A stretch of 63,749 nt of DNA, counting the filler, from Stramenopiles sp. TOSAG23-3 (Eukaryota): NCBI GenBank assembly GCA_900128585.1. It is 3 parts of 3 records of this genome, joined end to end, with 100 filler letters (N's around TTAATTAATTAA, not from the genome) between each part and the next. Parts side by side here need not be neighbours in the genome. Positions count along the whole stretch, not along the records: positions 1 to 21,312 come from LT642360.1; 2 more parts are not named here. The stretch is one strand, 5' to 3'. The position numbers and the translations under genes were made by a program. The notes beneath the pieces are model-generated. The model searched no databases. It was not told where the DNA came from and was given only the letters and a program-made list of their open reading frames with translations. Shown piece by piece: positions 1,803 through 21,312 of this stretch. The number at the start of each line of letters is the position of its first letter. The first letter of the stretch is position 1.

Positions 1803-2041
1803 AAAAAATAAAATAATAATAAAACAGTTGTGATTAGACCTCCTCCACTGTTGTTTTTTAATGAAGTAAAGAAATTGTCGAGTATGTTTTTGTTGTAGAT
1901 ACAAAAAATAGCAACGACAAAAAATTTGAACGGTAGGTTGCTCATCATAGATTCATTACGTATTTGATCTTTACTGTTTCACCGAAAGTGTTTTGCTTCA
2001 ACTCCTCCCTTTGCTACAAGCACTTCCTACTGGAGACTAAT

Positions 2042-2917
2042 ATGGACATGGTAGACATGGTCAAAAGCTGGCCACCGACGTTGGTTCAATACGACCCTGT
2101 GCGAGGGCCTGAGCTGGACTACCACGCGGTTGGTACTTTGTTTCTCGTTTGCATGGTCTTTTGGACGTTGACCTATCGCGTTTGCAAGGGGGTTTTTATG
2201 ACGCAAGACTTTTCAGGGTACTCGCCGGGGAATCAGCAAAAACTAAAGGTCCTTGGGCCGGGATACATTTACAGCACTATCAACGCCGGCATATGCTTGT
2301 ATTACGGTTTCGCCGTGTTCACCGGATACCTGGCCGAGGAAAAGTTGTGCCAAACTGCGAACGTGGGCTGCTCATCCAGTGACATTGTCAATTCAAGCTT
2401 TATCGGGGGGGTATTTCTTATGACCTACCTAACACACGACGTCTTTGTGTGCTGGTTTTACCCTGTAGAGCTGGGCCAGAACGGGTGGGACGTTTTCATC
2501 CACCACTTCGTGTTTATCTTCTGCACTATCGCCGGCACAAGGGCCATGGCCATGCCATTTGCGTACAGCTGGTTGAGCCTGTGTGAGATATCAACCATTC
2601 CTTTGAATATTCGTTGGATGACCATTGTCTACGAAAAGGGTGACAGCGCCCTGTACCACATCATGTCGTACGCTTTTGTCCTCTGCTTCTTCGCGTTCCG
2701 TGTGACACTCTACACTTTTGGATTGTGGGACATTGTGACGCAAATGGACTCTATCGTAGCTTCCTTCAACACTTTCGACACGGTTCGAAGATGGTGTAGC
2801 TTTTTTGTCCTGTTCCTAGTGACCGCTGGTTGGTTACTGCAGTTGTATTGGTTTTTCTTCGGAATCCTGCCCATGCTGTTTAGAAAAGGAAAGAAAAAAA
2901 GCGAAAAGTCGGACTAA
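2042..2917 (+). CDS. TLC (TRAM/LAG1/CLN8) domain membrane protein, TMEM56-like
   Basis: Multiple TM segments; YLTHD, FIHH, EISTIPLNIRW and FFAFR motifs; lysine-rich C-terminus. Confidence 0.85.
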   Translation: MDMVDMVKSWPPTLVQYDPVRGPELDYHAVGTLFLVCMVFWTLTYRVCKGVFMTQDFSGYSPGNQQKLKVLGPGYIYSTINAGICLYYGFAVFTGYLAEEKLCQTANVGCSSSDIVNSSFIGGVFLMTYLTHDVFVCWFYPVELGQNGWDVFIHHFVFIFCTIAGTRAMAMPFAYSWLSLCEISTIPLNIRWMTIVYEKGDSALYHIMSYAFVLCFFAFRVTLYTFGLWDIVTQMDSIVASFNTFDTVRRWCSFFVLFLVTAGWLLQLYWFFFGILPMLFRKGKKKSEKSD

Positions 2918-3205
2918 CTCGTGAGCCTTAACTTGCCCGCGATGCTCCCAATTCATTTTTTAAAACAAATTTTTTGATGAATTTTCTTCTCGCCAAATGG
3001 AACGTTTGAGTGAGTGAGTAATCGTAAAAGCAAAATACATCTCTCTCTCATACCTCTAAATTTAGAATTTTTAAGCATTGCCGGAAAGAGTTAAAGTTAA
3101 TAATACGTTTAAATCAATTTCCGTATTCTTTAAAAAGCATTTTTTTTAATTTACAAGATGTATGTTACATGTTATAACTTACGAGGAAGATAAATTTTAA
3201 TATTA

Positions 3206-3685
3206 TTGTTATTGAAAGACCCGAATACGAAGAAAGTAGAAAATTACTACGGTCTAAAAAACAATGTGTTTGTATTGCAGGAGTACAAAACATCGCGCAG
3301 GTACTTCCAGATGCGATTTCCTCTCACTCGAACAGCATTGAAATCCGTCTTTGGTTCTTTTGGTACTCTGAGGAATATCATTCAGAATAGTGTAAAAGTA
3401 TACCCCAGACAGTACTTAATTGTAAACCCGAACAATGGAAAACCGTACGCTACGCTATCCTCCACCATTAGCACCGTCTTCAGCAAGCCTCAATTGTTAG
3501 AAGCAAACAATGGCAACCCAATCAGCGCCAATATACTTCGGCATAGTTATGTGACGTACATGTGGAAAAAGAAGAAAATCAATGATGCACAAAAGAAAGA
3601 TTTGGCTCGACTCATGCTCCACCAAGTCGGCACTGCCGAGAGCTCCTACTTACAGAAGCTCGACGACTTCGTGGAAAGCGATTAA
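3206..3685 (+). pseudogene. tyrosine recombinase C-terminal fragment, Polinton-like virus/virophage type
   Basis: YKTSRRY, then ANILRHSYVT (box II LRH), then DLARLMLH...AESSY (catalytic H and Y). No ATG start and the N-terminal catalytic Arg region is absent. Confidence 0.8.
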
Positions 3686-3689
3686 TACT

Positions 3690-4035
3690 ATTTTTTATTG
3701 TAATTTACCTCCCGAAGACGTACCCTTATTATTAAAAGGTGGTACTGGCGAGACGTACTTAAAAGCTATCGTACAATTAAGTGGTAAGTGTTGTGTACAA
3801 CCCGGCGAGGCGGCAGGTGCTCACAGTTTAATACAAGAAATTCAAATCTTTGATAATTCTTATCAATTGCTCGATCAGCTCGAAAATTACAATGCGTGGA
3901 CAGCTACTAAATTCCACTATGACCAGACCAGGGGTCTGAACAACATGCGCGCTTTAATGGAAGGAAAATCCAAAGTTCAAGGCAACTTTTTAACCTCACT
4001 CTACTGGGAAGGCAACGCCGCGGCCGACTATTGGC
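3690..4035 (+). pseudogene. Polinton-like virus major capsid protein N-terminal fragment
   Basis: LPP..VPLL...ETYLKAIVQLSG...AGAHSLIQEIQIFD...LLDQLENYNAWTATKFHYD..RGLNNMRALMEG matches the PLV MCP N-terminal pattern as I recall it; truncated at both ends. Confidence 0.7.
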
Positions 4036-4237
4036 CACTCCATTGGAGAACACAGCACGCGTTGCATTTACCCACGCGGTAACCGGGAACACACAAGAGT
4101 GGAACGCTACTTCAGGATCAGTTTATTATATTATTAACCACCAATTTTGTTTATAGTATCGCTTACCCACATCTTATAAATTATTATTTATTGGTATACA
4201 TAAAAGGTGTCTTTTTGTTTATTAAATATTTTTTTTT

Positions 4238-4730
4238 AGAGCGAGCCTGATTTTGGTGCGTATTTTAGTGTTGTTCCCCTGGTAATAAAAATTAAAAGAC
4301 GTGTCTTTTGTTTGTTTGTTAACATTTTTTTTTCTTCTTTTTGTTTATTAGTCTATACGTCTATTTTTAGAGCGAGCCTGATTTTGGTGCGTATTTTAGT
4401 GTTGTTCCCCTGGTAATAAAAATTGCGATTTGTTTAATTGTTAACATTTATTTTTTGTTAAAATATATTTTCTTCTTTTTTTGTTTATTTTATTTATTTT
4501 TTTTTAGAGCGAGCCTGATTTTGGTGCGTATTTTAGCGTTGTTCCCCTGGTAATAATTGCGATTTAAAAGACGTGTCTTTTTATGTATACCAATATAATC
4601 TCTTCTTTTTGTTTATTTGTTAACATTTATTTTCTTCTTTTTTTGTTTATTTATTTTATTTTTTTTTGAGCGAGCCTTATTTTGGTGTGTATTTTAGTGT
4701 TATTCCCCTGTTAATAAAAATTGCGATTTT
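4238..4730 (+). repeat. 4-copy tandem repeat with a ~56-bp conserved core, adjacent to the PLV relic
   Basis: GAGCGAGCCTGATTTTGGTGCGTATTTTAGTGTTGTTCCCCTGGTAATAA starts near 4238, 4369, 4506 and 4668. Confidence 0.95.
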
Positions 4731-4925
4731 TCAACACGTATTATTGGAATTATATATTATTTTTATATTGGTATACACAAACGTCTTGTACCGTACATTA
4801 CGACAACGACAATTCGCTTATCTCTGCCTTACAAGTACAACATCTTGATTTTTATGAAATTTCTATGATCGCTTTAAGTCTTTACAAAATTATCTCCCTA
4901 CAAGATTAACCCCGATAGAAAAATA

Positions 4926-7721
4926 ATGAAGGTATATACTACGTTGATTTCACTCCTTGCGGTGCTCCTTGTATGTAATGCATTGGAATCTACTGACCCA
5001 ATTGTGGTAGGCCAAACCTTTCTAGCGGGATCTACTGATCCCACATCAGGAAGCACAGGATGGGCACTGGCGAGCCATGGGATTGCAGAAAAACTCTTCA
5101 CAGTCGACAAAGAGGGTGAGATCATTGGCCAAATAGCAAAATCAGTCCACAAAGTGAGCAACACCACCTGGGATGTCACGCTAAAGTCTGGATACAAATT
5201 CTCCGATGGTACTGTCGTCAATGCCAAGCATGTGGCCGACTGTCTACTGGAATTGAACAAGAAAAATCCTTCTGCGCAGTCATCATTGGATGTTATGACA
5301 ACCACGTCACGCGGAGAACTTGTGGTCCGGATCGAATCCTCACGCGTGACCCACGTAATGGATGCCGTGCTCGCAGAGTGGGTCTTCGTGGTGTACCTGA
5401 AGAAGGGCAATGGTTTTGTCTTTACTGGACCATACGTTGTCGATAAGTTTGTTGCCGGTAGTCATATTGACTTGGTGCCAAACGAGTTTTATAACCAAGC
5501 TAGTAGGCGGTCCAAGCTTACTGTCAAGAAGGTTTCTGGTGGAGACGCACTTGCCGCTGCTCTGGAAAACAACGAAGTGGACGTTGCATTCCACCTGCCT
5601 GTTGACAAACTTGCCGGCCTCCGTGCGAAGGACAATCTTCACATCAAATCTTTTGAGGTGGGATATCACTACATGGCATTTCATAATATCCGCAACGATC
5701 ACATGGCGGATTTGCGCGTGCGACAGGCTATTGATTTTGCAATCGACCGCGTTGCATTATCAGCGGCTCTGGATGGCGGGAGGGGAACACGCAGTCTCTT
5801 CCCGGACTACACACCCTACTTCTCCGACACCTCAAGCCCTGTTGCAAATTTGAGCGGGGCAGCAGCACTGCCTGTTTACGACGGACATTCCAACAAGACG
5901 GACGACGTCAAGAGGATTGTCTTTGCGCGAAACATGAATCACTGGGATGGCGTTCCCGATGGCTCCGTCACTTTCATGCACCTTGTTCGCCACGGTAGCG
6001 CCGAAGAGGTAAAGTCTGCCCTTCTCAACAATACTCTTGATATTGTCGTGGGCGATGGTGTCATGCACCCGGCGGATATCGAAGAGTTCAGGACACAGCG
6101 AAGTCCAAACTTTCACGTGTATCTGACTGAGCCACTCCAAAATCGTATCGTCATCTTCAACACAGCAAAAGCCCCGACAAATGATATAAAGACCCGCAAA
6201 AGCATTATCCATGCGGTGGACAAGGCGTCGATTATCGAGAAAGAGCTTGGTATCCTTGCAAAGCCCGTGAACAATCTATTTCCACAGAAAGCTCCTTACT
6301 GCGACGTGGAACTGACACCGCAATGGGACTACGACATGGAAAAGGCACGCCTGCTCAACTGTGAGAACCAGCGCGAGGTTACATACACATCCTGCGGTGT
6401 CCAGCATACGCTGACCAAAACTCCATCACGAGTGGTGACAATGAATCAAGGTGTCACTGAGTTCATGCTTGCGATGGGTCTCGCCGACAAAATGATTGGC
6501 ACGGCTTACCTCGACGATACCATTTGGCCAAAATATGCGGATGCGTATAGCGGCATACCCGTCCTTTCATCAAGCTATCCAGACGAAGCCACATTGATGA
6601 GCGCGACACCGGACTTTATTCTCGGCTCGTATGCGAGCGCATTTCGTGAGAAGACGTGCACAGATAAGTGCCGTGGAATTTTCAGTAGTGCCACAATTGG
6701 ACCATGCAATGGTCTAGGATCTGACCGTTTTGAATCAGGCTCAAATGCGACCACGAAGTACAGCACCTGTCGTCCTCAGCTGCACGATGCGGGGGTTGGA
6801 ACTTGGCTCGAACCAGTGTCATGCGAAGATGGCACACTAAGGCCCCAGGGCGGAGCAACGGAGGAGACAGTATACGCGGCCATTCGCCAAATTGGAGAGA
6901 TATTTGATACGCAGCACGTGGCCGAGCAACTCGTCACTGAAATCAGGAACGACTTTGCCGTCGCAGAGCAAGCGGTGGGAAACCTTGAAGCCGAGCTGAA
7001 GACTGTCTGGTTGGACTGCGTTGACTGCTGCAAGAGCGAAAATGGAGAAAGGACGGGCCTCTTTGTCGGAGCAGGCACCGGAGCGCCGAATCTAATCATG
7101 CAAGAGGCCGGTCTGAAAAATGTATTTGCAGGCATCAACGGTAGTTGGACATGTGTGACTGCAGGCGCCATTTTGGCTGCCAAGCCCGATGTGATGGTGA
7201 TCGTGGATGCTTCATGGGACACAGCGATGTCAAAAATTGACTTCTTGCACAACCACAATGAATTTTGCAACGCAAAATTTGTGAAGGGAGCTGATTACAT
7301 AAGCATCCCATTTAGTGCATCCACTCTAGGTCCTCGCAACGGAGCAGCTGCGCTTGATATGGCACTGGCTGCCATACACTTGACCACTGGCAGCACAACC
7401 GTTGATTTCAGATCTGGAGTAAAATTCATGAGCCCGGAAGCGCTTGAAAAGCGAACCGCTGGACTCAGATGCCCATTTGACTCAAAATCCAGCACAACTC
7501 AAGCACAGACTGATGCGATAAGCTCTGCTACCGGTATACCCGCCTTGGGCAGTGCCCTCATATGCATCTTTGCAATTCTTTTTGTTATCACCGCCACGTT
7601 CTTGTACGTCATGATTCGTCGCGAGAGACAGGGCAATCCCATGTTTACGTCTTTGTTAAACGCAGAAGTCGACCCGGGCGTGGAATTTACTGCTAGGAAG
7701 GAGGTGAATGTTGTAGTTTAA
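4926..7721 (+). CDS. membrane-anchored multi-domain solute-binding protein (family-5 NikA/Opp-like parts plus class III Fe/B12-type SBP)
   Basis: Signal peptide; KFSDGTVVNA, GPY, DLRVRQAIDFAIDR; TPSRVVTMNQGVTEFMLAMGL; single C-terminal TM helix. Confidence 0.85.
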   Translation: MKVYTTLISLLAVLLVCNALESTDPIVVGQTFLAGSTDPTSGSTGWALASHGIAEKLFTVDKEGEIIGQIAKSVHKVSNTTWDVTLKSGYKFSDGTVVNAKHVADCLLELNKKNPSAQSSLDVMTTTSRGELVVRIESSRVTHVMDAVLAEWVFVVYLKKGNGFVFTGPYVVDKFVAGSHIDLVPNEFYNQASRRSKLTVKKVSGGDALAAALENNEVDVAFHLPVDKLAGLRAKDNLHIKSFEVGYHYMAFHNIRNDHMADLRVRQAIDFAIDRVALSAALDGGRGTRSLFPDYTPYFSDTSSPVANLSGAAALPVYDGHSNKTDDVKRIVFARNMNHWDGVPDGSVTFMHLVRHGSAEEVKSALLNNTLDIVVGDGVMHPADIEEFRTQRSPNFHVYLTEPLQNRIVIFNTAKAPTNDIKTRKSIIHAVDKASIIEKELGILAKPVNNLFPQKAPYCDVELTPQWDYDMEKARLLNCENQREVTYTSCGVQHTLTKTPSRVVTMNQGVTEFMLAMGLADKMIGTAYLDDTIWPKYADAYSGIPVLSSSYPDEATLMSATPDFILGSYASAFREKTCTDKCRGIFSSATIGPCNGLGSDRFESGSNATTKYSTCRPQLHDAGVGTWLEPVSCEDGTLRPQGGATEETVYAAIRQIGEIFDTQHVAEQLVTEIRNDFAVAEQAVGNLEAELKTVWLDCVDCCKSENGERTGLFVGAGTGAPNLIMQEAGLKNVFAGINGSWTCVTAGAILAAKPDVMVIVDASWDTAMSKIDFLHNHNEFCNAKFVKGADYISIPFSASTLGPRNGAAALDMALAAIHLTTGSTTVDFRSGVKFMSPEALEKRTAGLRCPFDSKSSTTQAQTDAISSATGIPALGSALICIFAILFVITATFLYVMIRRERQGNPMFTSLLNAEVDPGVEFTARKEVNVVV

Positions 7722-8330
7722 GAGTTTTACTGTGTTCTTTCTGCACAAACCTCATCCATTAGCCTCCTCATTGTGCGATAAATGAAATTGTAGGAAGTTC
7801 GAAACGATCAATGAAAGTCGCGTCGGTTCAACTGAATTAATTGTGGCGAGCAAACCTCAGATTATATAATTATATTATACTCTATCGATATATCGTAGTA
7901 TCAAAAAATACTTAATATTATAAATGTATAATATTAAGTACTGTACTATTATTATATATAAATAATAATATTATAATATCCCACCAAAAAATACTTATAA
8001 ATAAAAATATAACAGACGACTATAGTAGTAGACGAATGAATATAAAATAAGCCAAATATTTATTACCTCCTCCTGGGAAGACGACATGCTGTGGCAGCAT
8101 ATTATAATATTAGTCCTCGTATTTAAAAGAAAGTGTGTGGAGAGTATACTTATTTATTTGTGTGGTTTTTGAATCTAAAATATAATTATACATATACAAT
8201 ATGAGATAATACATGTTTGTGGAGATTGCATTATTCTAATGTAAGAATTAAACCTGGTTGTTGCTATTTGCTCCTTGTTTTCCTTCTGTCTTTTGAACGG
8301 AAAAATTCGTGCACCTTGAAGAATTGTACA

Positions 8331-9995
8331 ATGGAAGGCCCAACCTTTTGGTCGCGATTGGTAAAGACTGCGTTCACGGTGAAGCACGTCGTGGCCCGTT
8401 CGCAGGAAGAGAGCTTGGTGCGCAAATTGGGGCGGTGGGACCTTACGTTGCTGGGGGTCGGTGCATCTATTGGCGCTGGAATATTTGTGCTTACGGGTAT
8501 TGCGGCAAAGCAAGCTGGGCCCGCGGTATGCTTCTCCTTCCTTCTGGCGGCGGCTATGTGCGTCCTGAACGCGCTGGCCTATGCGGAACTCAGTAGCCGT
8601 TTCCCCGAAAGTGGAAGTGCTTACCTCTATGCCTACTTGGTGTTCGGCGAAGTCGTTGCTATTGTTGCGGGGGTGAACTTGCTGATTGACTACCATGTTG
8701 GCGCGGCATCGATTGCCCGTTCGTTGGTGGGATATTTTGCCCAGCTGTGCAAAGACGTTCACATCCACTTGCCCCAGTTCTTAGTCAGCCTCCCGTTGCC
8801 GTCCGTCCCGTTCCTCTCGCTGTCGTTATTAGCCCCGCTTATTCTGCTTGCCATCACCATGGTTTTGGTGCGGGGCGTACAAGAGAGCAGTTCCGTCTCA
8901 AATGCGTTGACGGTCCTGAAAATTTTTATCGTGCTGCTTGTCATTGGGGCGGGTGTCACAGTGTCCGATAGTAAAAACTTAGCGCCGTTTGCCCCCAAGG
9001 GCGCGAACGGCGTGATAGAGGCCAGCGCCCTGGTGTTTTTTGCGTACATTGGGTTTGATGCAGTGAGCAACACGGCCGAAGAGTGCGTTCAGCCCCAGAG
9101 AGACTTGCCTTTTGGGATCATTGCCTCCCTGCTCGTTTGCGCGACCCTCTACATGGGTGTAACGTTGGTGCTGTGCAGCGTTGTTCCTTATGAAAAAATA
9201 GATGAGGACGCTCCGTTGACGACCGCTTTCAAGGGGCACGGAATGCACTGGATCGAACTGGTTGTTGACATGGGGGCAGTAATTGGTCTTTCAACAACGT
9301 TGCTCGTTGGCCTGTACTCCCAAGCGCGGATCTATCTCGGCATTGCCCGCGACGGTTTGTTGCCCAAACGGCTAGCCGCGGTTGACCCTAAAAGCGGTAC
9401 TCCTGTCATGTCCCAAATGGTATGCTTTGTCGTGGCAGGCGCCCTTGCTTTGTTCTTCGATGTGAAGCGCCTTTCGAGCGTCTTGTCGATCGGGATCATG
9501 TTTGCGTACACCACGGTGTGCGCTGCGGTACTCTACCTTCGCGTTGCCCCCGTGGAAAAGCCTATACTAACCCCGTTGCTCTCCTTGGTCGGGGCCTTTG
9601 CTCTAGCGTCTGGGTTTTGTTCGCGATACAAAGCACCGCTCATCGTGATGTACATGTGCAGTGGCATGGCCGTGCTCACCCTGACGATGCTCTGCTGTCG
9701 GTTGAACTTTAAAGCGCCTACGAACGAGAACGTGTTCGCGTGCCCATGGGTGCCTTTGCTGCCCTCGCTCGGCGTTGCTTTCAACCTGTTCATGATGGCA
9801 CAGCTGGCCTGGGAAGCATGGGTACGACTTGCTGTAGTAACTGTTATCGTCCTCTGCGCGTACGCTTGGAAGGTGTGGGGCGACGATCCAAACAGTAAGG
9901 TTGAAGGGGATTCGGACTCCCCGACAACTGCACCATTGTTGGGAACCCAAAATACATACGGTTCGACAGAAAGGGGGGTCGGGGGACTGAACTGA
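8331..9995 (+). CDS. cationic amino acid transporter (APC/CAT family)
   Basis: GVGASIGAGIFVLTG, YAEL, GSAYLYAY, FFAYIGFD, ARDGLLP, FACPWVP. Confidence 0.95.
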   Translation: MEGPTFWSRLVKTAFTVKHVVARSQEESLVRKLGRWDLTLLGVGASIGAGIFVLTGIAAKQAGPAVCFSFLLAAAMCVLNALAYAELSSRFPESGSAYLYAYLVFGEVVAIVAGVNLLIDYHVGAASIARSLVGYFAQLCKDVHIHLPQFLVSLPLPSVPFLSLSLLAPLILLAITMVLVRGVQESSSVSNALTVLKIFIVLLVIGAGVTVSDSKNLAPFAPKGANGVIEASALVFFAYIGFDAVSNTAEECVQPQRDLPFGIIASLLVCATLYMGVTLVLCSVVPYEKIDEDAPLTTAFKGHGMHWIELVVDMGAVIGLSTTLLVGLYSQARIYLGIARDGLLPKRLAAVDPKSGTPVMSQMVCFVVAGALALFFDVKRLSSVLSIGIMFAYTTVCAAVLYLRVAPVEKPILTPLLSLVGAFALASGFCSRYKAPLIVMYMCSGMAVLTLTMLCCRLNFKAPTNENVFACPWVPLLPSLGVAFNLFMMAQLAWEAWVRLAVVTVIVLCAYAWKVWGDDPNSKVEGDSDSPTTAPLLGTQNTYGSTERGVGGLN

Positions 9996-10450
9996 TTTTG
10001 ATGATGATCCATGTAACGCGTACCTCGGTAAAAAAAATATGTATATAATCCCCTGTTAATTATTTATATATTCTAATACCATTATGATACAGTATGTTTA
10101 TACAAGGACAAAGCGAAGAAGGGCAACTTCTTCTTTTCTGATGATATCTGATTTCTTCTACTATAAATAAACCTACCGTACCGTACCTGGTATTACCTGT
10201 ACCAGTAATAGTATTATTCTACAGTAGTAGAAAAAAATAACTACTCTTTGTTGTGATGAAGAAGAACATTATCATGCTCTTCTTGAAGTATATTTATTAC
10301 ACACAACAGAGATGCGAAGGATAATTGTGTAAAATACAAATTGGAATATTCAAATCATTTTCATCTCAGATACAAGGTGTATTAGTTGAATTGAACAGCA
10401 GGAATAGAATAGCATCCTCGGAGAACCTCTTTTTCACAAAACAAACAAAG

Positions 10451-11119
10451 ATGGCGTCTCTATCAGACCTCACTGAAGTAATTAAACGCTTGGACCAGCA
10501 AGACAAAAAAATAAAACAGCAAGCCGATGAAATAACAGAGTTGAAAAGACAACTGTGGCAGTTGAAGCAAACGAATGTTCAGTCCTTGAATGGTAAATCG
10601 GACAGAAAGAATTTTGTGCAGAAAGAGTGTTCAGACGAAATAAAAACATGGGCGGAAAAGTTACAAAATGTTCAAGAGAGTAACGCTCTGGCGAAAAAAC
10701 CGACACCAGTTGTCCCTGCAGAGAAATACGAACCGTTGGCGCTGTACGTGGCCGCCGAACACGGCGAAATGGAAAAGGCAAAGGCGTTGCTAGCCCAAGG
10801 ATACGATCTAAACCGAGATGATCAGTTGCACCCAAAATTTGGTACCACACCGTTGATGGAGGCATGTTTCCATGGACGCGAAGACATGGCAAAGTTATAC
10901 GTTGAAAACAATGCGGAGCTAAACACGCAGAGTGGGTTTGGATGGACTGCACTCCACTATGCCGGTCAAAACAACAAAGTGGGGTGCGTTGAATTGTTAC
11001 TGGCTGCAGGGTGCGACAAAAATTTAAAAAATTCGAAAGGCAAAACCCCTCTGGATCGGGCCAGAAAGCAAGGCAAAACGGATGTTGAAAATGCCATCGT
11101 TCGTGCCGGTGGGATGTAA
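10451..11119 (+). CDS. coiled-coil plus ankyrin repeat protein
   Basis: GTTPLMEA, GWTALHYA, GKTPLDRA repeats. Confidence 0.9.
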   Translation: MASLSDLTEVIKRLDQQDKKIKQQADEITELKRQLWQLKQTNVQSLNGKSDRKNFVQKECSDEIKTWAEKLQNVQESNALAKKPTPVVPAEKYEPLALYVAAEHGEMEKAKALLAQGYDLNRDDQLHPKFGTTPLMEACFHGREDMAKLYVENNAELNTQSGFGWTALHYAGQNNKVGCVELLLAAGCDKNLKNSKGKTPLDRARKQGKTDVENAIVRAGGM

Positions 11120-11303
11120 ATCGCAAAGAGTACTTCTTCTTTAAAAAACATTTTTTAAAAGATCGTGAAAGCTCGGTCGATGAAAAGATCTGAGATCTGG
11201 ATCCTTCATGGCTTATTAGATAGTTATAGTATTGATAGGTAAATATATTTGACGACTACGCATATTTATTACTAAACACTATTCCTAATAATTATACTTC
11301 TCC

Positions 11304-12569
11304 TCATATACGAGGACATGTAATACCAAGGTAATGTAATACAATAACCTCTTGCTCCCGCTTCGTCAGCAAAGCGAGGTGATTCGTGATGGAGGCGCGC
11401 TGTGCAGCCAGCTCATTTTCCTTTTCGCTGGCTCGGGCAACGAGCGCATCGATGCGCGCTGTCTCTCGCTCCACTTTTTCTGCGGACACTCGTTCTCGTT
11501 CAACGAGCTTTTGCTCGCGCTCTGCTAACATGCTTTCTGTGCGGTCACACGCACGTTCTTTGTCTGTCAAACTGGATTGAACGTAGTGTATGTCCCTTTC
11601 AACAGCCACCAACGATTGTCGCTTAGCTTCTGTTTTTTTCTTGAGCTGCTCTAACTGCCTGGAGCTCTCCGACAGAGTGGTCGCGTCAGCTGTTAAAGCC
11701 CGCTCCCGCTCTTCCATGGTACGCTCCCGCAGCTGTAAGGCGTTCTCGCGTTGCTTCAGTTTCGCTTCCCAATTTGTGTACAGACCCATGAGTTGAGTGC
11801 GGGTCTGCAGATCGTCCCCTCCACCATGTCGAACCTCCTTGTTCGTGACGTCAGGGAAAGAAGGGGGAGGCGGTGATGGGTGGTGGGGCCGTCGCAGGAC
11901 GTTAGACAACTGAAGTTGCGTGTTTTTCAAGAGCGTCTGTTCGTGTAACAATTCGTCGTTTTCGTCGAATGCCAAACCCAGTGGTGGAGCGCGTTTCTGC
12001 TTGAGCTGGGACATGCGCAACCCTTCCAAATACCCGGAAGCGAAGTTTTTATCTTTTTGGACCCCCTCGTTTTGATGGCCGAACGTGTCGTTCTTGCGCT
12101 CTTCGTCGTCGGCGACGCTTCCACGGCTGGGCGTGCTAAACGACCAGTCATCCGATCTCCTTGCCACTGATTGTTTTTGAGGAGTAAACGCTGGTGGTCG
12201 GGGTGCTGGACGCTGCTTATTTGCCGCGCGCGAGGTCTGCGGGCGTTTTAGGCCCTTGTTCACTTGCTCCATCCGTCGGGTAGAGCTAACAGTGGGCCGT
12301 GCCACATCTCGTGCGCGGCGGGTCGAGGTCGCCTTTTTTGTTGCGGGCATCTCGGCCGACGAGGTGCCCCGACGGGCACGGAGGTCAGGGGACCATGCAT
12401 TCAACGGGCGTGCCGTGTCGTATTCGTCTAATGCGTGCGTAGTTTCCTGCAGCTCCGCGAACGCATCTGCCAGACGGCTCCGGCGCAGCTTGCGTTCGGC
12501 CGACAGGGTGCTTACCTCGCCGTCAGGCTGCTCGATCGCGGCGGCTGAGCGGCCAGTGGGTGACGCCAT
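11304..12569 (-). CDS. GC-rich coiled-coil protein, probably 3'-truncated or an isolated exon
   Basis: Long ORF; the coiled coil ends abruptly at EQE|GTTATT and runs into AT-rich DNA. Confidence 0.5.
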   Translation of the reverse strand: MASPTGRSAAAIEQPDGEVSTLSAERKLRRSRLADAFAELQETTHALDEYDTARPLNAWSPDLRARRGTSSAEMPATKKATSTRRARDVARPTVSSTRRMEQVNKGLKRPQTSRAANKQRPAPRPPAFTPQKQSVARRSDDWSFSTPSRGSVADDEERKNDTFGHQNEGVQKDKNFASGYLEGLRMSQLKQKRAPPLGLAFDENDELLHEQTLLKNTQLQLSNVLRRPHHPSPPPPSFPDVTNKEVRHGGGDDLQTRTQLMGLYTNWEAKLKQRENALQLRERTMEERERALTADATTLSESSRQLEQLKKKTEAKRQSLVAVERDIHYVQSSLTDKERACDRTESMLAEREQKLVERERVSAEKVERETARIDALVARASEKENELAAQRASITNHLALLTKREQEVIVLHYLGITCPRI

Positions 12570-12685
12570 GGTCAGGAACAAGCAGATGGCGCACTCGTTG
12601 ATACGATCCTTCTGCTACTCACCGTTCGCCGTCCCGCACTCAACAATCGTTCCCGTGTCTGCGTGTCCGTCCACGTCAATCAACA

Positions 12686-12807
12686 CAGCACACCGTCCGT
12701 CCGTGCATGCCTCGAGGAAGCTCCGCGGTGAATCATGAATCGATCATGCAGCACACCGTCCGTCCGTCCGTCCGTCCGTGCATGCCTTGAGGAAGCTCCG
12801 CGGTGAA
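12686..12807 (+). repeat. two-copy direct repeat with a variable (CCGT)n tract
   Basis: cagcacac(cgtc)n..gcatgcct.gaggaagctccgcggtgaa at 12686 and 12749. Confidence 0.9.
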
Positions 12808-13194
12808 GAGAAATCATCGTTCGATTCGTTAAATCAAAAATGTGTGTCAGTGTGTCAGTACTGTACCAACGACATGGACTATATCTATACATAGACGAAC
12901 AGTACTTGGAAGACCATGTAGAATATGGAATGATCTCCCCTTTTCCGGATATCTCGCAGGGATCCACGTAGTGTGACCGAAGCACATGTACCACATCGGA
13001 CTCATTTACATAGGGCATGCGTGGTCATGTTGTCAACGACTTACTTAAAAGTACATGGGTGGAGAGGACCTCACGCACGTCACCCCCGTTCGTGTTCTAG
13101 ATAAGTTGGATCCAAGTTGGGTAGGCGAGTAGGTCTACATGTCGTTGAAACGTGGCGATGTCACAATTACATGCATCTTCATTCACTTTACTAA

Positions 13195-14511
13195 CTATTC
13201 GAGCGATTCATACTGTTGTCCGCTCTTTTCGATACCCACCTTTTCCCCGCTCTCTTCCACATCTTTCTCGGAGTTTGCTTTGATGATGGCACTGACCACG
13301 GAGGCCAAAATAAATGCCCCCCCCACCAGCACACGTGGTGATGGGAAGCTCTGCAGAATGATCATCCCGAACACAATTTGAACAACAAACTGAGAATTGA
13401 GCCCAGTACTAAGCAGCGCTTTATTGCACATGATCGTTGCTTGCAACCAGCATTGCTGAGGAACCGTTACGAAAAGCACGCCAAAGTATAGCATATTCAG
13501 CCACAACTCATGATTCCACAGTTGTGCGTACTTGTCGGTGCCCTGAAGCAAGTTAATCATGTGGTATGCTACAGTTCCAAGCGTCAGTCGAAAGACGGTC
13601 AGGATTCCTGGGGGCACTGCGGTCAAAAAGCTTTTACTGATCAGCAGTGAGCCTGCAAAACAGAGCGATGCAAGGAGAATGTACATTTCGCCGATTGAAA
13701 TACCTATCTCACCACCGGAAAAAAGCGGGGCAGTAACAAAGGTCAGAACGATTCCAGCAGCCGTCAGCAAAGCGTTGATTGTGTCCCACCTAGACGGGAA
13801 ACTCTTACCACGTGACAGCAAAGGCTGAGCCACGATGATGAACACAGACTGGCTCTTTTCGAGAACTGTTACAGTGGCAACAGAAGCCTGTTCCCAACCA
13901 AGGTTGGAGAACAAAGGACCAAGAATTGTCGATAGTATTGCTCCTACAAACATCCACGACCAAGTTTGTCGTGATATAGTCTTCATTTGATCCTTTGAGA
14001 GGTCTCTCCAAAGAAAGGCGACGGACGAAACAAGTGCGACAGTATTCGATGCACATAGAATATTGCAAGCATTGAACACCGAAGGGTTTGAATTGTTCAG
14101 TGCCTTAAAAATGGATACCTTCAACCCATACAGCCCGATGGATACCACTAGGAAAATCATGCCTGCATTGCGGACGGCATATTGTTTGCAAGCCGACACA
14201 AACGAACCCTTGTCACCCGTGTTCTCGGAGGCAACCACTCTCTCCATGGCACCCGCAGCTTTCAGAAACGATTCGAAGATTCCACGAACGAAGAACTCAT
14301 TCAAGCAACAAACCGCTTTTTCTCTCGACCGAACCGACGACCTTTTCTCTACATTCGTGTCGTGTTCGTGTCCAAAGAGGCACGCATCGCATGAAATAAA
14401 CCCGCAAAGCCGCGTTGCTTCTTCGACTGACTGACATGACTGACTTGCTTCGCCCAACCCTCCCAACGTAACTCGACTCTCAACCCCGCGACGTGACGTT
14501 GCTGTGTCCAT
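13195..14511 (-). CDS. EamA/DMT family transporter
   Basis: About 10 TM segments in two halves; GEMYILLASLCFA and GGAFIL motifs. True start may be a downstream Met. Confidence 0.85.
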   Translation of the reverse strand: MDTATSRRGVESRVTLGGLGEASQSCQSVEEATRLCGFISCDACLFGHEHDTNVEKRSSVRSREKAVCCLNEFFVRGIFESFLKAAGAMERVVASENTGDKGSFVSACKQYAVRNAGMIFLVVSIGLYGLKVSIFKALNNSNPSVFNACNILCASNTVALVSSVAFLWRDLSKDQMKTISRQTWSWMFVGAILSTILGPLFSNLGWEQASVATVTVLEKSQSVFIIVAQPLLSRGKSFPSRWDTINALLTAAGIVLTFVTAPLFSGGEIGISIGEMYILLASLCFAGSLLISKSFLTAVPPGILTVFRLTLGTVAYHMINLLQGTDKYAQLWNHELWLNMLYFGVLFVTVPQQCWLQATIMCNKALLSTGLNSQFVVQIVFGMIILQSFPSPRVLVGGAFILASVVSAIIKANSEKDVEESGEKVGIEKSGQQYESLE

Positions 14512-15106
14512 ATCCCTCTATCTCCTCTTTTTCAGATCAAGACGAGGACATTTCATATTCCATCCATGACCGAAACGGGTGTGTTAGATATACTGTGTGA
14601 ATATATACTCCACGCAGACGACGCGATACGAGCTGAGTAGGAGTCTCGAGGCAAAATTATTATTATTATTACCAACAATTATAAATGGACATTGTAACAA
14701 CATTTTATTGGAATCATTATAATAATATTAATTATTATTACTCTCTATACTATATCTTTATATTATCTATAAATTATATTATTCTCTTCTTTTTTCTTTT
14801 CTTCTCTTCATTTTCACATAATTATTATAGTCGTCTAATAATAATTATGTGAAATTATATTATTTTATTATTATTATTATATAATTCATCACACACAACA
14901 ATAATTCACAACTCACATACGGTACTATATTATATATACAGAGAGACCTTTAAATTGAATTTTTAGGATACTTCTGAATCTTTTGAACCAATAAAATTAC
15001 ACTTGTAATCCGAGTATATGGCTTATATATACGAAGGAATAGAACGAACACATCGATTTTCAACTCTTCTTCTTTTTGAAGACCTCGAAGTGCAAGCTGT
15101 GCGGTC

Positions 15107-16063
15107 ATGTTGTTTTCTTCTCACGGGCTTCGCGCGCTACTTTGCCTTTTAGTAGCAATAATATTTGGGCTTGCCAGTGCTCTCTCCCCTGGGATGGAGG
15201 TTTATCCCAGAAGGTGCAGCTCGCACTATAAAGATGCGTCGGTTGGGTCGAACAAGGCTGTCGTGGGCTGCACTCCGAAAGAAGGTGGGAAATGTGACCG
15301 TGTCGTACAAAGCGATTTTTTGGGAAAGGAAGAGGTGGATACGCTGATCGAGATGGCAGAAAAAGGCATGGCTAAGGTGCCCCGCCGAAGCCAAAAACGT
15401 GCTGGCCCAACGATAATGGACGTAAACAGTGGGTACGTTCTAGGAAGTGGGGAGCACCAGCCGGCAGGAATTTACCGCGACGGGCAAATCTACTCCCCAA
15501 AACAGTACGAAACGTACCGACGCGTGACGACAAAGATCAAAGGGTTCATCGAGGAGTACTTTGAGCTTTCCAAGCTGTACTTTACAGCGCCGACGTTTAT
15601 TACTCGGGAGATTGGGGACCCGAGCTGGAAGCCAAAGACCATGCACGATGAGTATTGGCACGTTCACGTTGACAAGAACAACACAGATCACTACGATTAT
15701 TCGGGGCTGATATATTTGTCGGACCACGGGGTAGATTTCGAAGGCGGCGAGTTGGAATTCTATGAATACGACGCGCTAAATTGCGACCCATTTGTCGACG
15801 AGAAGAACCCAGGGCCATGCATCGTCTTGGGCGAACCATCGCAAACCGTTATCCCGGCCCGGGGCCGGTTGATTGTTTTTGGGAGCGGGCGTGAGAACCC
15901 ACACCGCGTCAAGAAGGTGTCCACTGGTACCCGCTACGTCCTCAGTTTCTGGTTCACCTGCAACGGTCAGCGCGAGTTCGGCACGTTCTTGGACGGGAAA
16001 AACCACAAAAACTACAAAGGGAAACGCAAGCACAGGAAGAAAAGGACGAAAGAAGAGTTGTAA
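15107..16063 (+). CDS. secreted 2OG-Fe(II) oxygenase, OGFOD3/prolyl-hydroxylase-like
   Basis: Signal peptide; DEYWHVHVD (HxD), YSGLIYLS, FEGG, ENPHRV..V..GTRY; C-terminal KEEL. Confidence 0.9.
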   Translation: MLFSSHGLRALLCLLVAIIFGLASALSPGMEVYPRRCSSHYKDASVGSNKAVVGCTPKEGGKCDRVVQSDFLGKEEVDTLIEMAEKGMAKVPRRSQKRAGPTIMDVNSGYVLGSGEHQPAGIYRDGQIYSPKQYETYRRVTTKIKGFIEEYFELSKLYFTAPTFITREIGDPSWKPKTMHDEYWHVHVDKNNTDHYDYSGLIYLSDHGVDFEGGELEFYEYDALNCDPFVDEKNPGPCIVLGEPSQTVIPARGRLIVFGSGRENPHRVKKVSTGTRYVLSFWFTCNGQREFGTFLDGKNHKNYKGKRKHRKKRTKEEL

Positions 16064-16141
16064 AAATTAAAAATTTAAAATAATTCTTCATACTCTAACG
16101 AATCTTTACTGTTCTTAAACTTCGTAAGAACTTTTATTTTA

Positions 16142-16178
16142 AAAACAAGAAAATTGGCCTGTTATTTAAAAATTTATA
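16142..16178 (+). repeat. copy of dispersed 3'-end dyad motif
   Basis: AAAACAAGAAAATTGGCCTGTTATTTAAAAATTTA, about 80 bp after the stop at 16063. Confidence 0.85.
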
Positions 16179-16615
16179 TGGCAGAACCAGACAATCTACA
16201 AACAGAAAAAGTCACTGCCCTCCTATGGAAACTACTAACAGCCTGGATAATGAAAAATCGAAGTCACAGCATAGTTCTCAATCACTTGATCAAGTCAATT
16301 ATGGAACACCACCAGACGAGATGATACGAAGTTTTGAAGATTATAATTGGGAACTGGGTCGAATGATACGATATCGTAGGAACGACAAAGGAGGTACCGA
16401 CCGAAAATTAGATCAGTTTTACAAATTGGGATAATCTTGAGAGTCTTAAAACATACTATATCATTAGTTTTTTTAAGTAATTAAAATTAATGTACTGCGA
16501 ACTTTTATTTATTTAATATTGTACAATTTCTTTTCTGTTTTTATTAATTTCTTCGTCTAAGTTTATGAATCTCCGAGAAACTCTTGCCTTGTAAGTTTCT
16601 TTAAATGGTTCATAT

Positions 16616-17806
16616 TCATTCGTCCTCATCCTCTTTTCTCTTCTGAAAAACCAAAGTTTCCAAGGTCAATTTCTTCAATTGGGCTGTATTCTCATGAGAC
16701 GTTCTATACCCAGCGTCCGCAATTGGGAGATATTTTTTAAAACTTGTCGCAAAGAGACTTTTACGGGAACAATAATTTTTAATGTTGTCAAACTCCTTTT
16801 CAATGCCTTTCATCCTCAAAAGTATGAGAATTAAACCTTCGCTACCCTCTTTTGTTTCAAAAAACTTGTCGCCATGTAATTGGTTAAGAGTTTGTCTGAT
16901 GCGTGGTAGTAGGTCTTCAAAAAGCCAATGCAAGTCTTCTTCACCGTAGAATTTAAAGGTTAACCAAGGATCACCTAGGCAGTAGAAAGTGTCAATAACC
17001 GATTGTAGGGTATGAAACCATTTCTGTTGGATTTCTTTGTCCTTCCCTTTCCTGCTCTTGCTTTTTGGAAGTTTATGTGCATCAAAATCAAGGACACAAA
17101 ACAGCTTGTTACGCATAAGGGTCTGGCTTTGATGGCCTTCACTTTCGCTAATGCAGAATTTAAGAAAGTTCGCACGGTTGTTAGCATCAATGTATTCTCC
17201 AACCAAATGCCCAGATTGAATAGGTGATCCAGAGTAAGTATTGTGGTCAAACTTGTATAATGCATGATTTCCCAACGGGTCAACAAACGCTGGGTGGCTT
17301 CCGTCGCTTGCGCTACTGCTGCTACTGCTACAGCCACCACACGTTTTTTGCTTCTTTGCGCTTGTACTACCCCCATACATTTGTTTGTTGTAGTGGTAAT
17401 TGTATACAACTCCAGCGTGTTGCACAAATTTCTCATGCCACCAAGTGCATTTTTTTGAGCGACACCCTGCGTAAACGTACGCATCACGGTATTCACTGGC
17501 TTGCATATACATGGTGCTTGTTAGCCCATCCATGAATCGAGCACTATAGAGCACACGATCAGGATAGTCGCTGTACTCGCCGGAGGCAGTATCATGCCAT
17601 GTAGGTAAATTTCGTTTCCGCGGGTTTGAATCGCTTAGATCACAGTCTAAACTCCAGTGGTCTTTAGGAAGTCCATTTCTTACGTAATGTTTTACTACTT
17701 CGTATTGGGGTGTTTGAACATAATACATGGTTCTTGAATGTGCTTTTCTCTGATGCGTAATTCCGCGGTAGGTAAGATTCTGAAAGTACTTTGTTTCTTC
17801 TGACAA
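16616..17806 (-). CDS. AT-richer orphan ORF, probably 5'-truncated and of foreign origin
   Basis: 396 open codons with a TTG start just after an in-frame stop; no recognisable domain. Confidence 0.5.
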   Translation of the reverse strand: MSEETKYFQNLTYRGITHQRKAHSRTMYYVQTPQYEVVKHYVRNGLPKDHWSLDCDLSDSNPRKRNLPTWHDTASGEYSDYPDRVLYSARFMDGLTSTMYMQASEYRDAYVYAGCRSKKCTWWHEKFVQHAGVVYNYHYNKQMYGGSTSAKKQKTCGGCSSSSSSASDGSHPAFVDPLGNHALYKFDHNTYSGSPIQSGHLVGEYIDANNRANFLKFCISESEGHQSQTLMRNKLFCVLDFDAHKLPKSKSRKGKDKEIQQKWFHTLQSVIDTFYCLGDPWLTFKFYGEEDLHWLFEDLLPRIRQTLNQLHGDKFFETKEGSEGLILILLRMKGIEKEFDNIKNYCSRKSLFATSFKKYLPIADAGYRTSHENTAQLKKLTLETLVFQKRKEDEDE

Positions 17807-18910
17807 TTTTTAAATCTTAACCTGGTGATGAAACGAAAACGATCTGGTCTATGTGTATAAAATTTTAATTTTTAATTCTTTTTACGTATTTGAAATTGTA
17901 TACATAGTGTCTATTAAATCGGTTTATAAACAAAAGAAGAGCTCTGCGATAGAAAGAAAGAAACAACTCCTCGTATATTTAATATTATCCACCACCGACC
18001 CACCACTTCTTCTTCTTGCTTGATGATGATGATGTCACAGCAGGAGGGTTGATGATAATATGATGGATGATGATGAATAATAATGAATGAATAAATGAAG
18101 AAAATAATAAGAAGAAGATGATAGAAATTATTATTTATTACCTTTTTTTTTATTGGCGCCACTCCTCTGTTGTTGTTATTATTATTATATATAGACTTAC
18201 GTAGTCCTATTATTATTGAAAATAGCTTAAAAAAGTAAACCTATTTATTTTATTTACTCTTCTTTGTAGTCTAGTCTAATACTGTTTCTTAGACTAACTT
18301 CATTTCAAATTTCATCTTTTTTTACTCAGTCCTTTACCTATTCACCTATTATTAGTTTATTATTTTTTATAACAGATCGATCGATCGAATCATTCAAATT
18401 GAATAAAAAATAATAATAATTATTTATAAAAAATTAAAAAATAATTAAAAAAAATGTAAAAAAAAAGGGTTGGTTGGATTCTATTTCTATGTTGTATTAT
18501 ATTTATTAATACTTAAATATAAAGAGTCGTCTAAATATTATTATTATTATTATATAGTATTAAATAGAATTAAAATAACACAACAAGAGATAAAGAAGAA
18601 GAAGAAGAAAGGAAGAAATAAAGTTTAATATTGTTGTGAATAATATAATTTAATAATAATTAATACTACTACATGTAATAGTATTGAAGGGAAAATTGAA
18701 TTGAATTGAATGAAAGAAACTAATTCTTTTTTCTACATTGCATACGTATAGGTATGTGTTTCTATCTAAAAGGGATTAGAAATATTTAGTAATTTTGGAG
18801 AGATAGAGAGAAAAAGTGTTTGTGTGTGCGTGTGTTTTTTGTATGTTTGTGCGTGCAATACTGGAAACAGACCTTTGAAAATACATACCGTCTTCTCTGC
18901 GTTCTCAACC

Positions 18911-20356
18911 ATGCCGAAGGACAAAAAAGACAAGAAGAGCAAGGACAAGAAGGACAAGAAGAGCAAGGGGAGCAAGGCGGCCTTGTCCACTGTTCCGAGT
19001 GATATGAGTGCAGCACCTACGATGGCCACAAGCATGTCCATGGCTCCCGGCGCAGGGCCAGCGTTTGGCGGTGGGCAAGTGTTTGAGCGCTACGCCAACG
19101 AGCAGGGGCAGCTTACTCCCCGCGGCTTCATGCGTATGGTGCAAAGCGAAGGGATGTCGATGAACGGTGCCATGCTGAACCAAGGCCAAATGGGCAGGGT
19201 CCCGGGGACCCCGGACAAAACCGACTTCGAGGTAGGCCGGCTGTTCGCACGGTTCGGAAAGTCCGGGGCCAACGGGCAGATAACGAGCAACGAGTTCAAA
19301 GAGATGATGCACTCCCTGGCGAAGGAAGGCCGCTGGCAAGAGCAGCGCTCGGGGGGGCAGCAGCGTGCGGGGAACAACATGCGCTCGGCGAGCACGTCCT
19401 ACGCGTCCACCTCCGCGGCCGCCGCTGCGGTCGCGCCCCCGGAGCACTTTTTCAACTTGCCCTTAGCGCCCGAGACGGAGCGGATCCGGGCGGAGATCAA
19501 TGCCCACGCGTCGGCGGTCAACCCGCTCGCCGCCACGGAGCTTCACATGCTACAGATGAACCTGTTGTCGAAAAAGGAGCACCTGATGCAGCAGATGCGG
19601 TTCGTCCGGGCACGCGCGGAGGAGGTCCAGTCCGTGCGGCGGGCCATCGAACGGGAGACGCTGGCGGACGCGGAGGCCATCGTCCACCGCCTCCGCGGGG
19701 CCGAATCCTTGAAACTGTCCCTGCTGAAGCACGACATGGACCAGCTGCAGCACGACTTAGACGAGATCGATGGCTTTGCTGCGATCATGAAGCGCGATTC
19801 CAACACGGCCAAGAGCGGCACGATGAACGCGGATGGCAGCGCCCTGTCGACCCGTTCCAGGTACTTGGAAATGTGCGCCGAGGCGGAGCGGATCGCGAAC
19901 AAAAACTTCAAAACGACGATCGACGTTCAAGCGGACGACTTTGACCGGGAGGTTGTAGAGCGCATAAACTTAGCGACCCAGGTGGAGGCTGCCAAGGAGG
20001 CGGCGGCCGTGAAAGACCAGATGGTGTGGATGCTGCTGCAGGAACGGGAAGAGCTCAAGACGACCGAAAAGAAGTACTCCGAGGAAGTCGAAAAACTTAG
20101 CCAAGAGAGCTGTAAAGAAATAGAAGAGTGGGTTCGCTTGACCGATAACTTTCGGGCGAAGCTGACCGCGGCGCAAGCCAGAATCAAAGAACTGGAGGGG
20201 GCCAGTAGGACCACCACCCTTCCCGAAGATTCTGAGAATTCGAATGGGAACGCAGGGTCCGAATCGGAGGTCAACTCGAGCTTCGTGAAAGGGAACAGTG
20301 ATCAAATTAGCGTGGACGGAATCGGGACCCCAGGGAAAAAGGGGGGGTGGGTCTGA
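18911..20356 (+). CDS. EF-hand-like plus coiled-coil protein
   Basis: MPKDKKDKK start; degenerate EF-hands (GQLTPRGF, GQITSNEF); long coiled coil. Confidence 0.75.
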   Translation: MPKDKKDKKSKDKKDKKSKGSKAALSTVPSDMSAAPTMATSMSMAPGAGPAFGGGQVFERYANEQGQLTPRGFMRMVQSEGMSMNGAMLNQGQMGRVPGTPDKTDFEVGRLFARFGKSGANGQITSNEFKEMMHSLAKEGRWQEQRSGGQQRAGNNMRSASTSYASTSAAAAAVAPPEHFFNLPLAPETERIRAEINAHASAVNPLAATELHMLQMNLLSKKEHLMQQMRFVRARAEEVQSVRRAIERETLADAEAIVHRLRGAESLKLSLLKHDMDQLQHDLDEIDGFAAIMKRDSNTAKSGTMNADGSALSTRSRYLEMCAEAERIANKNFKTTIDVQADDFDREVVERINLATQVEAAKEAAAVKDQMVWMLLQEREELKTTEKKYSEEVEKLSQESCKEIEEWVRLTDNFRAKLTAAQARIKELEGASRTTTLPEDSENSNGNAGSESEVNSSFVKGNSDQISVDGIGTPGKKGGWV

Positions 20357-20560
20357 ACGCAGCGCTCCTAGAGGTGGCCTTTAATATAATATTTAAATTC
20401 GTGTCCCAGAGACGTACAGATGACAAAATATTTTCAATGTGTTATTTGTGAAGGACTCGCGTAAAGCAGTTCGTAAAGAATTAAGAGTAAGAAGTGGTAA
20501 AAAATACACACGAGCGAATGCGCCAACGCAGTAAGAATTAAGTTTACTTTTTTGTCTCCG

Positions 20561-21271: not shown

Positions 21272-21312
21272 ATGAAAAGATGGTGGTGGGACGAGAGAGA
21301 GACCAACACAAA

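Follow-up and report, generated by a model that had tools for sequence, protein, structure and literature searches.

The window analysed here is the whole 63.7-kb stretch of DNA, and all coordinates are positions in it unless they are prefixed by the name of a locus or a protein. Its gene content is eukaryotic, with long ORFs, few introns and AT-rich spacers between them, and the Pfam domains found in its ORFs include TLC, EF-hand, dynein heavy chain, ALG6/ALG8 and Patched. Within a 2-kb spacer between two host genes lies a short series of pieces related to a tyrosine recombinase (YR) and to a major capsid protein (MCP), on the plus strand like both flanking genes (Table 1). The GC content of this remnant is 43.4%, that of its intact relative, the metagenomic contig L031, is 43.2%, and that of the flanks is 27-29%.

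Table 1. Features of the remnant and of the host spacer that contains it
Feature	Position	Strand	Basis
Upstream host gene for a TLC-domain membrane protein; left border of the host spacer	1964..2917	+	Pfam PF03798 TLC domain, E 5.4e-15
3' remnant of the YR gene, codons ~424-580 of 580 plus stop	3212..3685	+	P0001, 93% identity, E 1.4e-91; L031 1627-2124, 88% DNA identity
Remnant of the native YR-MCP spacer, ~22 bp, ending at the deletion junction ~3705-3708	3686..3707	+	DNA alignment to L031
MCP codons 29-132 of ~518	3708..4021	+	L031 2265-2575, 91% DNA identity; phmmer E 6e-45 to 1e-24
25-bp filler where ~248 capsid codons (133-380) are gone	4022..4046	.	No significant match to P0072 or any locus
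Short capsid remnant, codons ~381-390	4047..4075	+	8/9 identities to P0072 275-283; score 45; 0/500 shuffles
Short capsid remnant, codons ~421-431, other frame, ~30 codons deleted before it	4076..4108	+	10/11 identities to P0072 315-325; score 55; 0/500 shuffles
AT-rich tandem array, ~4 copies of a 110-137 bp unit	4179..4730	.	TRF period 137, 3.1 copies; repeat family D1, 4 copies
Downstream host gene, SBP_bac_5 + Peripla_BP_2 fusion, 931 aa; right edge	4926..7721	+	PF00496 E 2.1e-48; PF01497 E 4.1e-12

The surroundings of the remnant have several features of their own. The 931-aa product of the downstream gene (4926-7721, +) combines two bacterial-type solute-binding domains, with hydrophobic stretches near the N- and C-terminus of the translation; in a eukaryote, such a domain combination is unusual. 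Short inverted copies of 'TATTGGTATACATAAAA' are present at 4189, 4579 and 4763, in or near the tandem array at 4179-4730; the array occurs nowhere else in the window and has no match in any fetched locus, and a viral origin for it is unsupported. Comparison of the flanks (2918-3214 and 4022-4925) with all loci revealed no significant similarity, only AT-rich matches of 21-31 nt, and no viral ends, inverted or terminal repeats, or att-like sites were recognised in them. No further viral genes were found in the 63.7-kb window, all 49 tblastn matches of viral-locus ORFs falling in the 3000-4000 bins. Further along the window, three consecutive ORFs on the minus strand (24226-29336) resemble a single dynein heavy chain from which the motor has been lost. 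ORF 25493-27898 (-) contains DHC_N2 (E 5.5e-118), and ORF 24226-25500 (-), which overlaps it by 8 nt in another frame, contains AAA_lid_11 and Dynein_C (E 3.5e-72); the AAA modules, which usually lie between these parts of a dynein heavy chain, are missing. Either a large internal deletion, comparable to that of the viral remnant, or a collapse during assembly would account for this gap.

The ORF at 3206-3685 (+) corresponds to residues 423-580 of P0001, a 580-aa metagenomic protein, and thus covers its 157-158 C-terminal residues. Among the other relatives of this piece, P0002 is 80% identical and the rest are 44-51% identical. Homology begins at about 3212-3215, and the AT-rich DNA upstream of this point is unrelated. 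An earlier sequence-only reading had described the C-terminal half of a tyrosine recombinase here; the C-terminus is indeed present, but the piece makes up only the final 27% of the protein. Of the active-site positions, it retains Lys, Arg-II, His and Tyr. Since it begins after Arg-I (R399) and does not open with an ATG, it is incapable of encoding an active enzyme.

The recombinase family is distant from the established models. Pfam (PF00589, Phage_integrase) gave no hit for the window piece, P0001, P0002, P0003 or P0005, and only one of ten distant short relatives touched the model, at 21.7 bits against a cut-off of 27.1. A PHROGs search of the window piece gave only a hint of an integrase (E 0.005), and a PDB sequence search with the window pieces returned nothing useful. 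When a profile built from alignment A5 (16 YR sequences, including metagenomic relatives of ~190-320 aa) was compared with PDB, it matched XerH (E 1.6e-6) as well as XerC-like proteins, XerA and an integrase. R399, K449, R533, H534 and Y569 are invariant in A5, and H560 is invariant in a 6-sequence YR alignment. The AlphaFold model of P0001 (pLDDT 75.3) displays the two-domain fold of tyrosine recombinases, with a core-binding and a catalytic domain. In the Foldseek search with this model, the listed rows down to rank 39 are all tyrosine recombinases at E ~0.01, with probabilities of 0.94-1.0 in the first ten. VIA-align gave Z scores of 11-13 to XerA, Cre and lambda Int over residues ~186-580, including 13.4 for XerA and 12.5 for Cre (rmsd 5.6, 280 residues aligned). 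On the basis of the invariant residues, the XerH profile match and the model alignments, the family is assigned to the tyrosine recombinases as a divergent group with a long N-terminal extension.

The capsid part of the remnant begins in the frame at 3687-4082, which corresponds to residues ~28-135 of 37 library proteins, the full-length ones being 498-816 aa long. It therefore lacks the N-terminus and most of the protein, as had been supposed from the sequence: only codons 29-132 of ~518 are present in this piece. Pfam, at its thresholds, found nothing in the capsid piece or in its full-length relatives. The structural model of P0033 (533 aa, 60% identical to the window capsid piece) reached a pLDDT of 85.2 and a pTM of 0.83, and Foldseek matched it to the capsid proteins of grouper iridovirus (1e-14), PBCV-1 (4.6e-13) and mavirus (1e-9), to 155 PDB chains in all at E <= 0.001, and to capsid models of giant viruses at E values down to 1.6e-18. 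According to this model, the family is a double-jelly-roll major capsid protein, and the match on which the identification of 3690-4035 as capsid sequence had been made to depend was thereby obtained. A 3-bp insertion at ~3726 in this piece is specific to the present assembly.

Downstream of the filler, two short stretches could be aligned with P0072, the closest capsid C-terminal part, in which residue i equals residue i+106 of the ~518-aa protein. They follow each other in the order of the protein and lie in two different frames. Among 500 shuffles of 4022-4160 the maximum score was 41, and the best ungapped scores in the actual sequence were 45 and 55. The match of the first stretch runs on to 4091 (P0072 275-289), across a stop at 4080-4082. 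A third, frame-shifted coding piece had been proposed at ~4035-4120, and it proved to be real, consisting of these two MCP bits (4047-4075 and 4076-4108) in different frames. The accompanying claim that the fragments are free of internal stops does not hold for this piece, which contains the in-frame stop at 4080-4082. A further candidate for the capsid C-terminus, 'TSGSVYY', was not significant. In total, the window keeps residues 29-132 of the capsid protein and two bits of ~10 residues each, which include only part of the first jelly roll.

The native arrangement of the two genes can be read from L031, a 2,984-bp metagenomic contig that carries the YR gene at 355-2097 and a capsid gene from 2181 on the same strand, separated by an 83-bp spacer. 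Window positions 3215-3705 align with L031 1627-2124 and positions 3708-4021 with L031 2265-2575 (88% and 91% DNA identity, respectively). What is missing between them is L031 2125-2264, a 138-bp deletion that comprises 56 bp of spacer and capsid codons 1-28 and is flanked by ATT microhomology. Because both genes are direct neighbours in L031, the butt joint between YR and MCP reflects this 138-bp deletion and not a collapse of many kilobases. The two fragments are close to each other, as had been noted, but what separates them is ~22 bp of native spacer (3686-3707) instead of the ~5 bp reported. The larger losses lie inside the MCP gene (~744 bp and ~90 bp) and beyond both ends of the remnant. 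Thus, the idea of a collapse by large deletions applies to the capsid gene, which internal deletions have shredded, but not to the YR/MCP joint, where only 138 bp are lost. The other possibility raised at the time, namely that the fragments were captured separately, is unlikely because every piece keeps the order and orientation of the virus.

A scan with a 5-sequence capsid alignment found 30 capsid-bearing viral contigs, whose capsid genes are 39-68% identical to P0033 (41.5-72% by tblastn of the window piece). Twenty-eight of them are 15.5-29.6 kb long and the other two 5.7 and 10.6 kb; the four viral loci measured have a GC content of ~33%. Their common gene order is a DUF5906 primase-helicase-type gene, a ~250-aa Walker-motif gene, the capsid gene and then DUF5872, followed by two genes of ~470 and ~500 aa and one of 1,300-1,800 aa. 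In L002, the contig examined with Pfam, the DUF5872 gene (11728-12102, E 1.1e-33) is located directly 3' of the first capsid gene. After the capsid gene, mcp2 is present in 29 of the 30 contigs and mcp3 in 24. The second capsid-like gene is weakly related to the first (hhalign E 1.2e-4, probability 55%, 151 columns); the third gave no hhalign alignment with the first, and the Atlas clusters nearest to it (score 0.97-0.98) are families of viral capsids, a lead and no more. The morphogenetic module of polinton-like viruses consists of a major capsid protein, a minor capsid (penton) protein and an A32-like packaging ATPase, on genomes of about 15-40 kb. Profile searches of the relatives for a packaging ATPase found no match, the sole support for one being Walker-A-like and Walker-B-like motifs in the conserved ~250-aa gene, and no penton protein was identified in them.

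Trimcap/group X polinton-like viruses are described as having three capsid genes (PMC7805220; PMC11502894; bioRxiv 10.64898/2026.06.19.733378, 10.64898/2026.05.28.728513). The source of the remnant would fit a polinton-like-virus-like element of this three-capsid, Trimcap/group X-like type, with membership judged by gene order and weak paralogy and not by published Trimcap profiles. The polinton-like character suggested by the sequence-only reading is in line with the occurrence of the relatives on viral contigs of 17-30 kb.

The position of the recombinase in this virus lineage is less uniform. Scans of the viral contigs with the YR and capsid pieces of the window and with the recombinase alignment yielded no matches, and a YR of this type was found in none of the 30 viral capsid loci within the DNA fetched. 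The linkage of YR and capsid hence rests on L031, L033 and L035; L033 and L035 carry YR together with the capsid block, and L034 carries YR with the third capsid gene. An additional locus, L032, is a 19-kb eukaryotic contig in which host-type genes (purple acid phosphatase, WW and ephrin-receptor-like) flank viral genes. L032 8259-13304 comprises a small upstream ORF and two intact genes, one for a 580-aa YR with 81% identity to P0001 and one for an 898-aa DUF5906/VapE-like helicase. The helicase shares 51% identity with its counterpart in viral contig L002, and the relative order of YR, helicase and small gene is the same as in L002 and L003; no capsid gene was found in L032. This locus is thus another relic of the virus lineage, one that has been eroded less than the remnant in the window. 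From the absence of YR in the 30 loci and its presence in L032, L033 and L035, it follows that only some of these viruses carry the gene, plausibly those that integrate.

The reality of the locus was examined in sequencing runs. At least half of the sampled words were present in 12 of the 24 listed runs, from 8 studies. In each of two of the three DNA runs, X3 (metagenome) and X4 (organism B), a single contig covers 2700-4188 through all junctions, at depths of 3.9 and 46, respectively; from the third, X5, only a 33-nt piece was obtained with ~55% of the run read. Each of the two contigs has one substitution in 3210-4188, lacks the 3 bp at 3726 and carries 46 additional letters at 3210/3211. 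From these contigs it can be concluded that the junctions, for which read support had been demanded, are genuine and that the 5' edge varies among strains. The 46 extra letters and the missing 3-bp insertion further indicate that the locus is polymorphic between strains. The viral sequence is contiguous with the host genes at 1964-2917 and 4926-7721, and the X3 and X4 contigs are independent of the assembly.

Regarding the host, the best-covering named relatives of an ALG8-type marker are oomycetes and Blastocystis (35-41% identity), with the nearest named oomycetes at ~40%. In a 21-row tree this marker stands apart from green plants and algae (support 96/95), and its placement among the non-green groups is not settled by the tree. 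Composition and an Atlas lead to Streptophyta (plant-type transporter) clusters had raised the suspicion of a green-algal host, which the ALG8-type tree contradicts. The host is probably an uncultured non-green marine protist, with a stramenopile being likely. Trimcap-type capsids have been reported in 'unclassified Stramenopiles', as described in Bellas et al. 2023 (PMC10120064).

Nearly all substitutions relative to L031 are synonymous, with counts of 40 synonymous and 12 non-synonymous changes in the YR piece (dS 0.57, dN 0.033, dN/dS 0.058), and 21 and 4 in the capsid piece (dS 0.43, dN 0.017, dN/dS 0.038). The low dN/dS therefore indicates that the divergence arose mostly under selection as viruses, and the scarcity of non-synonymous changes that decay has been recent and by deletion. 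Judged from these sequence comparisons, the remnant would be young relative to its split from L031, having acquired few substitutions and at least three deletions since its inactivation. We regard the region ~3212-4108 as very probably a dead, deletion-eroded endogenous remnant of a Trimcap/group X-like polinton-like virus. The source virus would have carried a 580-aa YR directly upstream of its first capsid gene, and the viral DNA in the AT-rich host spacer would once have extended from YR codon ~424 to at least capsid codon ~431, or ~1.85 kb. It may have entered as a whole provirus by means of its own recombinase and then been eroded by microhomology-mediated deletions. At least three internal deletions (138 bp, ~744 bp and ~90 bp) together with truncation at both ends have reduced it to the present 0.9 kb. 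With no start codon, no first catalytic arginine and a partial first jelly roll, the remnant presumably does nothing now.

Alternative explanations were weighed against this reading. That viral reads were misjoined to a host contig, by assembly error or contamination, is extremely improbable: N runs do exist in the window, and endogenous viral regions are described as assembling poorly (PMC10120064), but the X3 and X4 contigs cross every junction from the host gene at 2700 to 4188, and there are no N runs in 1803-21312. A closer competitor, which we consider possible but rather doubtful, is that a viral piece of at most ~2 kb, already broken and patched, was end-joined into a chromosomal break during infection, with YR uninvolved. 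Both ends of the remnant lie within genes, its flanks are devoid of viral termini, inverted repeats and attachment-like repeats, no second viral gene occurs elsewhere in the 63.7-kb window, and the 25-bp filler (4022-4046) and 3-bp microhomology are of the kind left by end joining, all of which speaks for such a capture. However, the source virus has an integrase family, and true integration occurs in the lineage because the eukaryotic contig L032 holds a relative with intact YR and helicase; in addition, the 46 further letters at the 5' junction in X3 and X4 hint at ongoing stepwise change and not at one single event. Provirus collapse is somewhat favoured over the capture of a stray piece, although the data do not separate the two.

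A further alternative is that the remnant is retained as an immunity element, in which read-through or its own transcription yields an RNA, or a truncated YR/capsid peptide, that interferes with such viruses. The remnant shares its strand with the upstream host gene, its junctions are the same across many marine data sets, and its frames are open with dN/dS of 0.04-0.06; but the low dN/dS is expected from divergence as live viruses and gives no sign of host selection, the YR frame has no ATG at its start, and the capsid pieces contain frameshifts and a stop. RNA data bear on this question through one poly-A metatranscriptome, X15, in which three contigs, 104-145 nt long and of depth 2-2.4, fall at 3278-3537, all within the YR part. 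One of them is identical to the window over 145 nt, and another comes from another copy because its flanking letters are unlike those of the window; carry-over of DNA is possible as well. An X15 contig over the upstream gene (2700-2969) shows 18 differences and leaves the window sequence at 2969, and this transcript is thus from another strain. The three short contigs are the sole RNA signal and at most a weak hint of transcription of the remnant, and the read-through and small-RNA idea of the sequence-only reading found no support. It is very improbable that the locus is a fixed, weakly transcribed YR/capsid piece downstream of a host gene, priming RNA- or peptide-based interference against the abundant Trimcap-type viruses; if true, this would be the protist equivalent of an immune memory built from viral sequence.

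Read as a dead endogenous remnant, the locus is otherwise an ordinary viral element, and its main use is in linking a virus group to a host. Trimcap/group X is described as the most abundant marine group of polinton-like viruses, with hosts barely known (bioRxiv 10.64898/2026.06.19.733378, 10.64898/2026.05.28.728513). A read-verified fossil in a host chromosome would provide direct evidence that the Trimcap-capsid lineage once entered an uncultured protist. It would also mean that some Trimcap-type members possess a 580-aa YR that is missed by current Pfam models, and it offers a clean case in which deletion outpaces substitution during decay in a compact protist genome.

Compared with known recombinases, the YR family resembles Cre, XerA/XerH and lambda Int in its two-domain fold and in the conserved Arg, Lys, Arg-His and Tyr. 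Its His-to-Tyr spacing of 9 is the same as that of lambda Int. It differs from these enzymes in its length of 580 aa, with a helical and disordered N-terminal extension of ~185 residues, and the first His of the HxxR motif is replaced by Asn ('NILRH', or 'NTLRH' in P0003/P0004).

At the level of the virus, the likeness to Trimcap/group X consists of capsid relatives on marine and freshwater contigs of 17-30 kb, two further capsid-like genes and a very large gene, whereas L031 differs from the 30 fetched viral loci in having YR directly upstream of the first capsid gene. Prasinophyte-specific polinton-like viruses are described as small viruses that are integrated in marine picoeukaryotes and carry a YR and a polymerase-helicase gene (PMC10675990); a match to them was dropped, as the host group, judged by the marker tree, and the capsid group both differ from those described there. 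In Bellas et al. 2023 (PMC10120064), a tyrosine recombinase and a primase-helicase are described as frequent in endogenous polinton-like viruses of protists, and the present locus, which may already be among those counted in that or other cited surveys, resembles these elements as a capsid gene of a small DNA virus within a protist contig. The same source argues that most seemingly broken endogenous copies are assembly artefacts of complete insertions of 15-30 kb. Unlike the copies described there, the remnant reported here is truly 0.9 kb long and located between host genes, and independent contigs agree on it.
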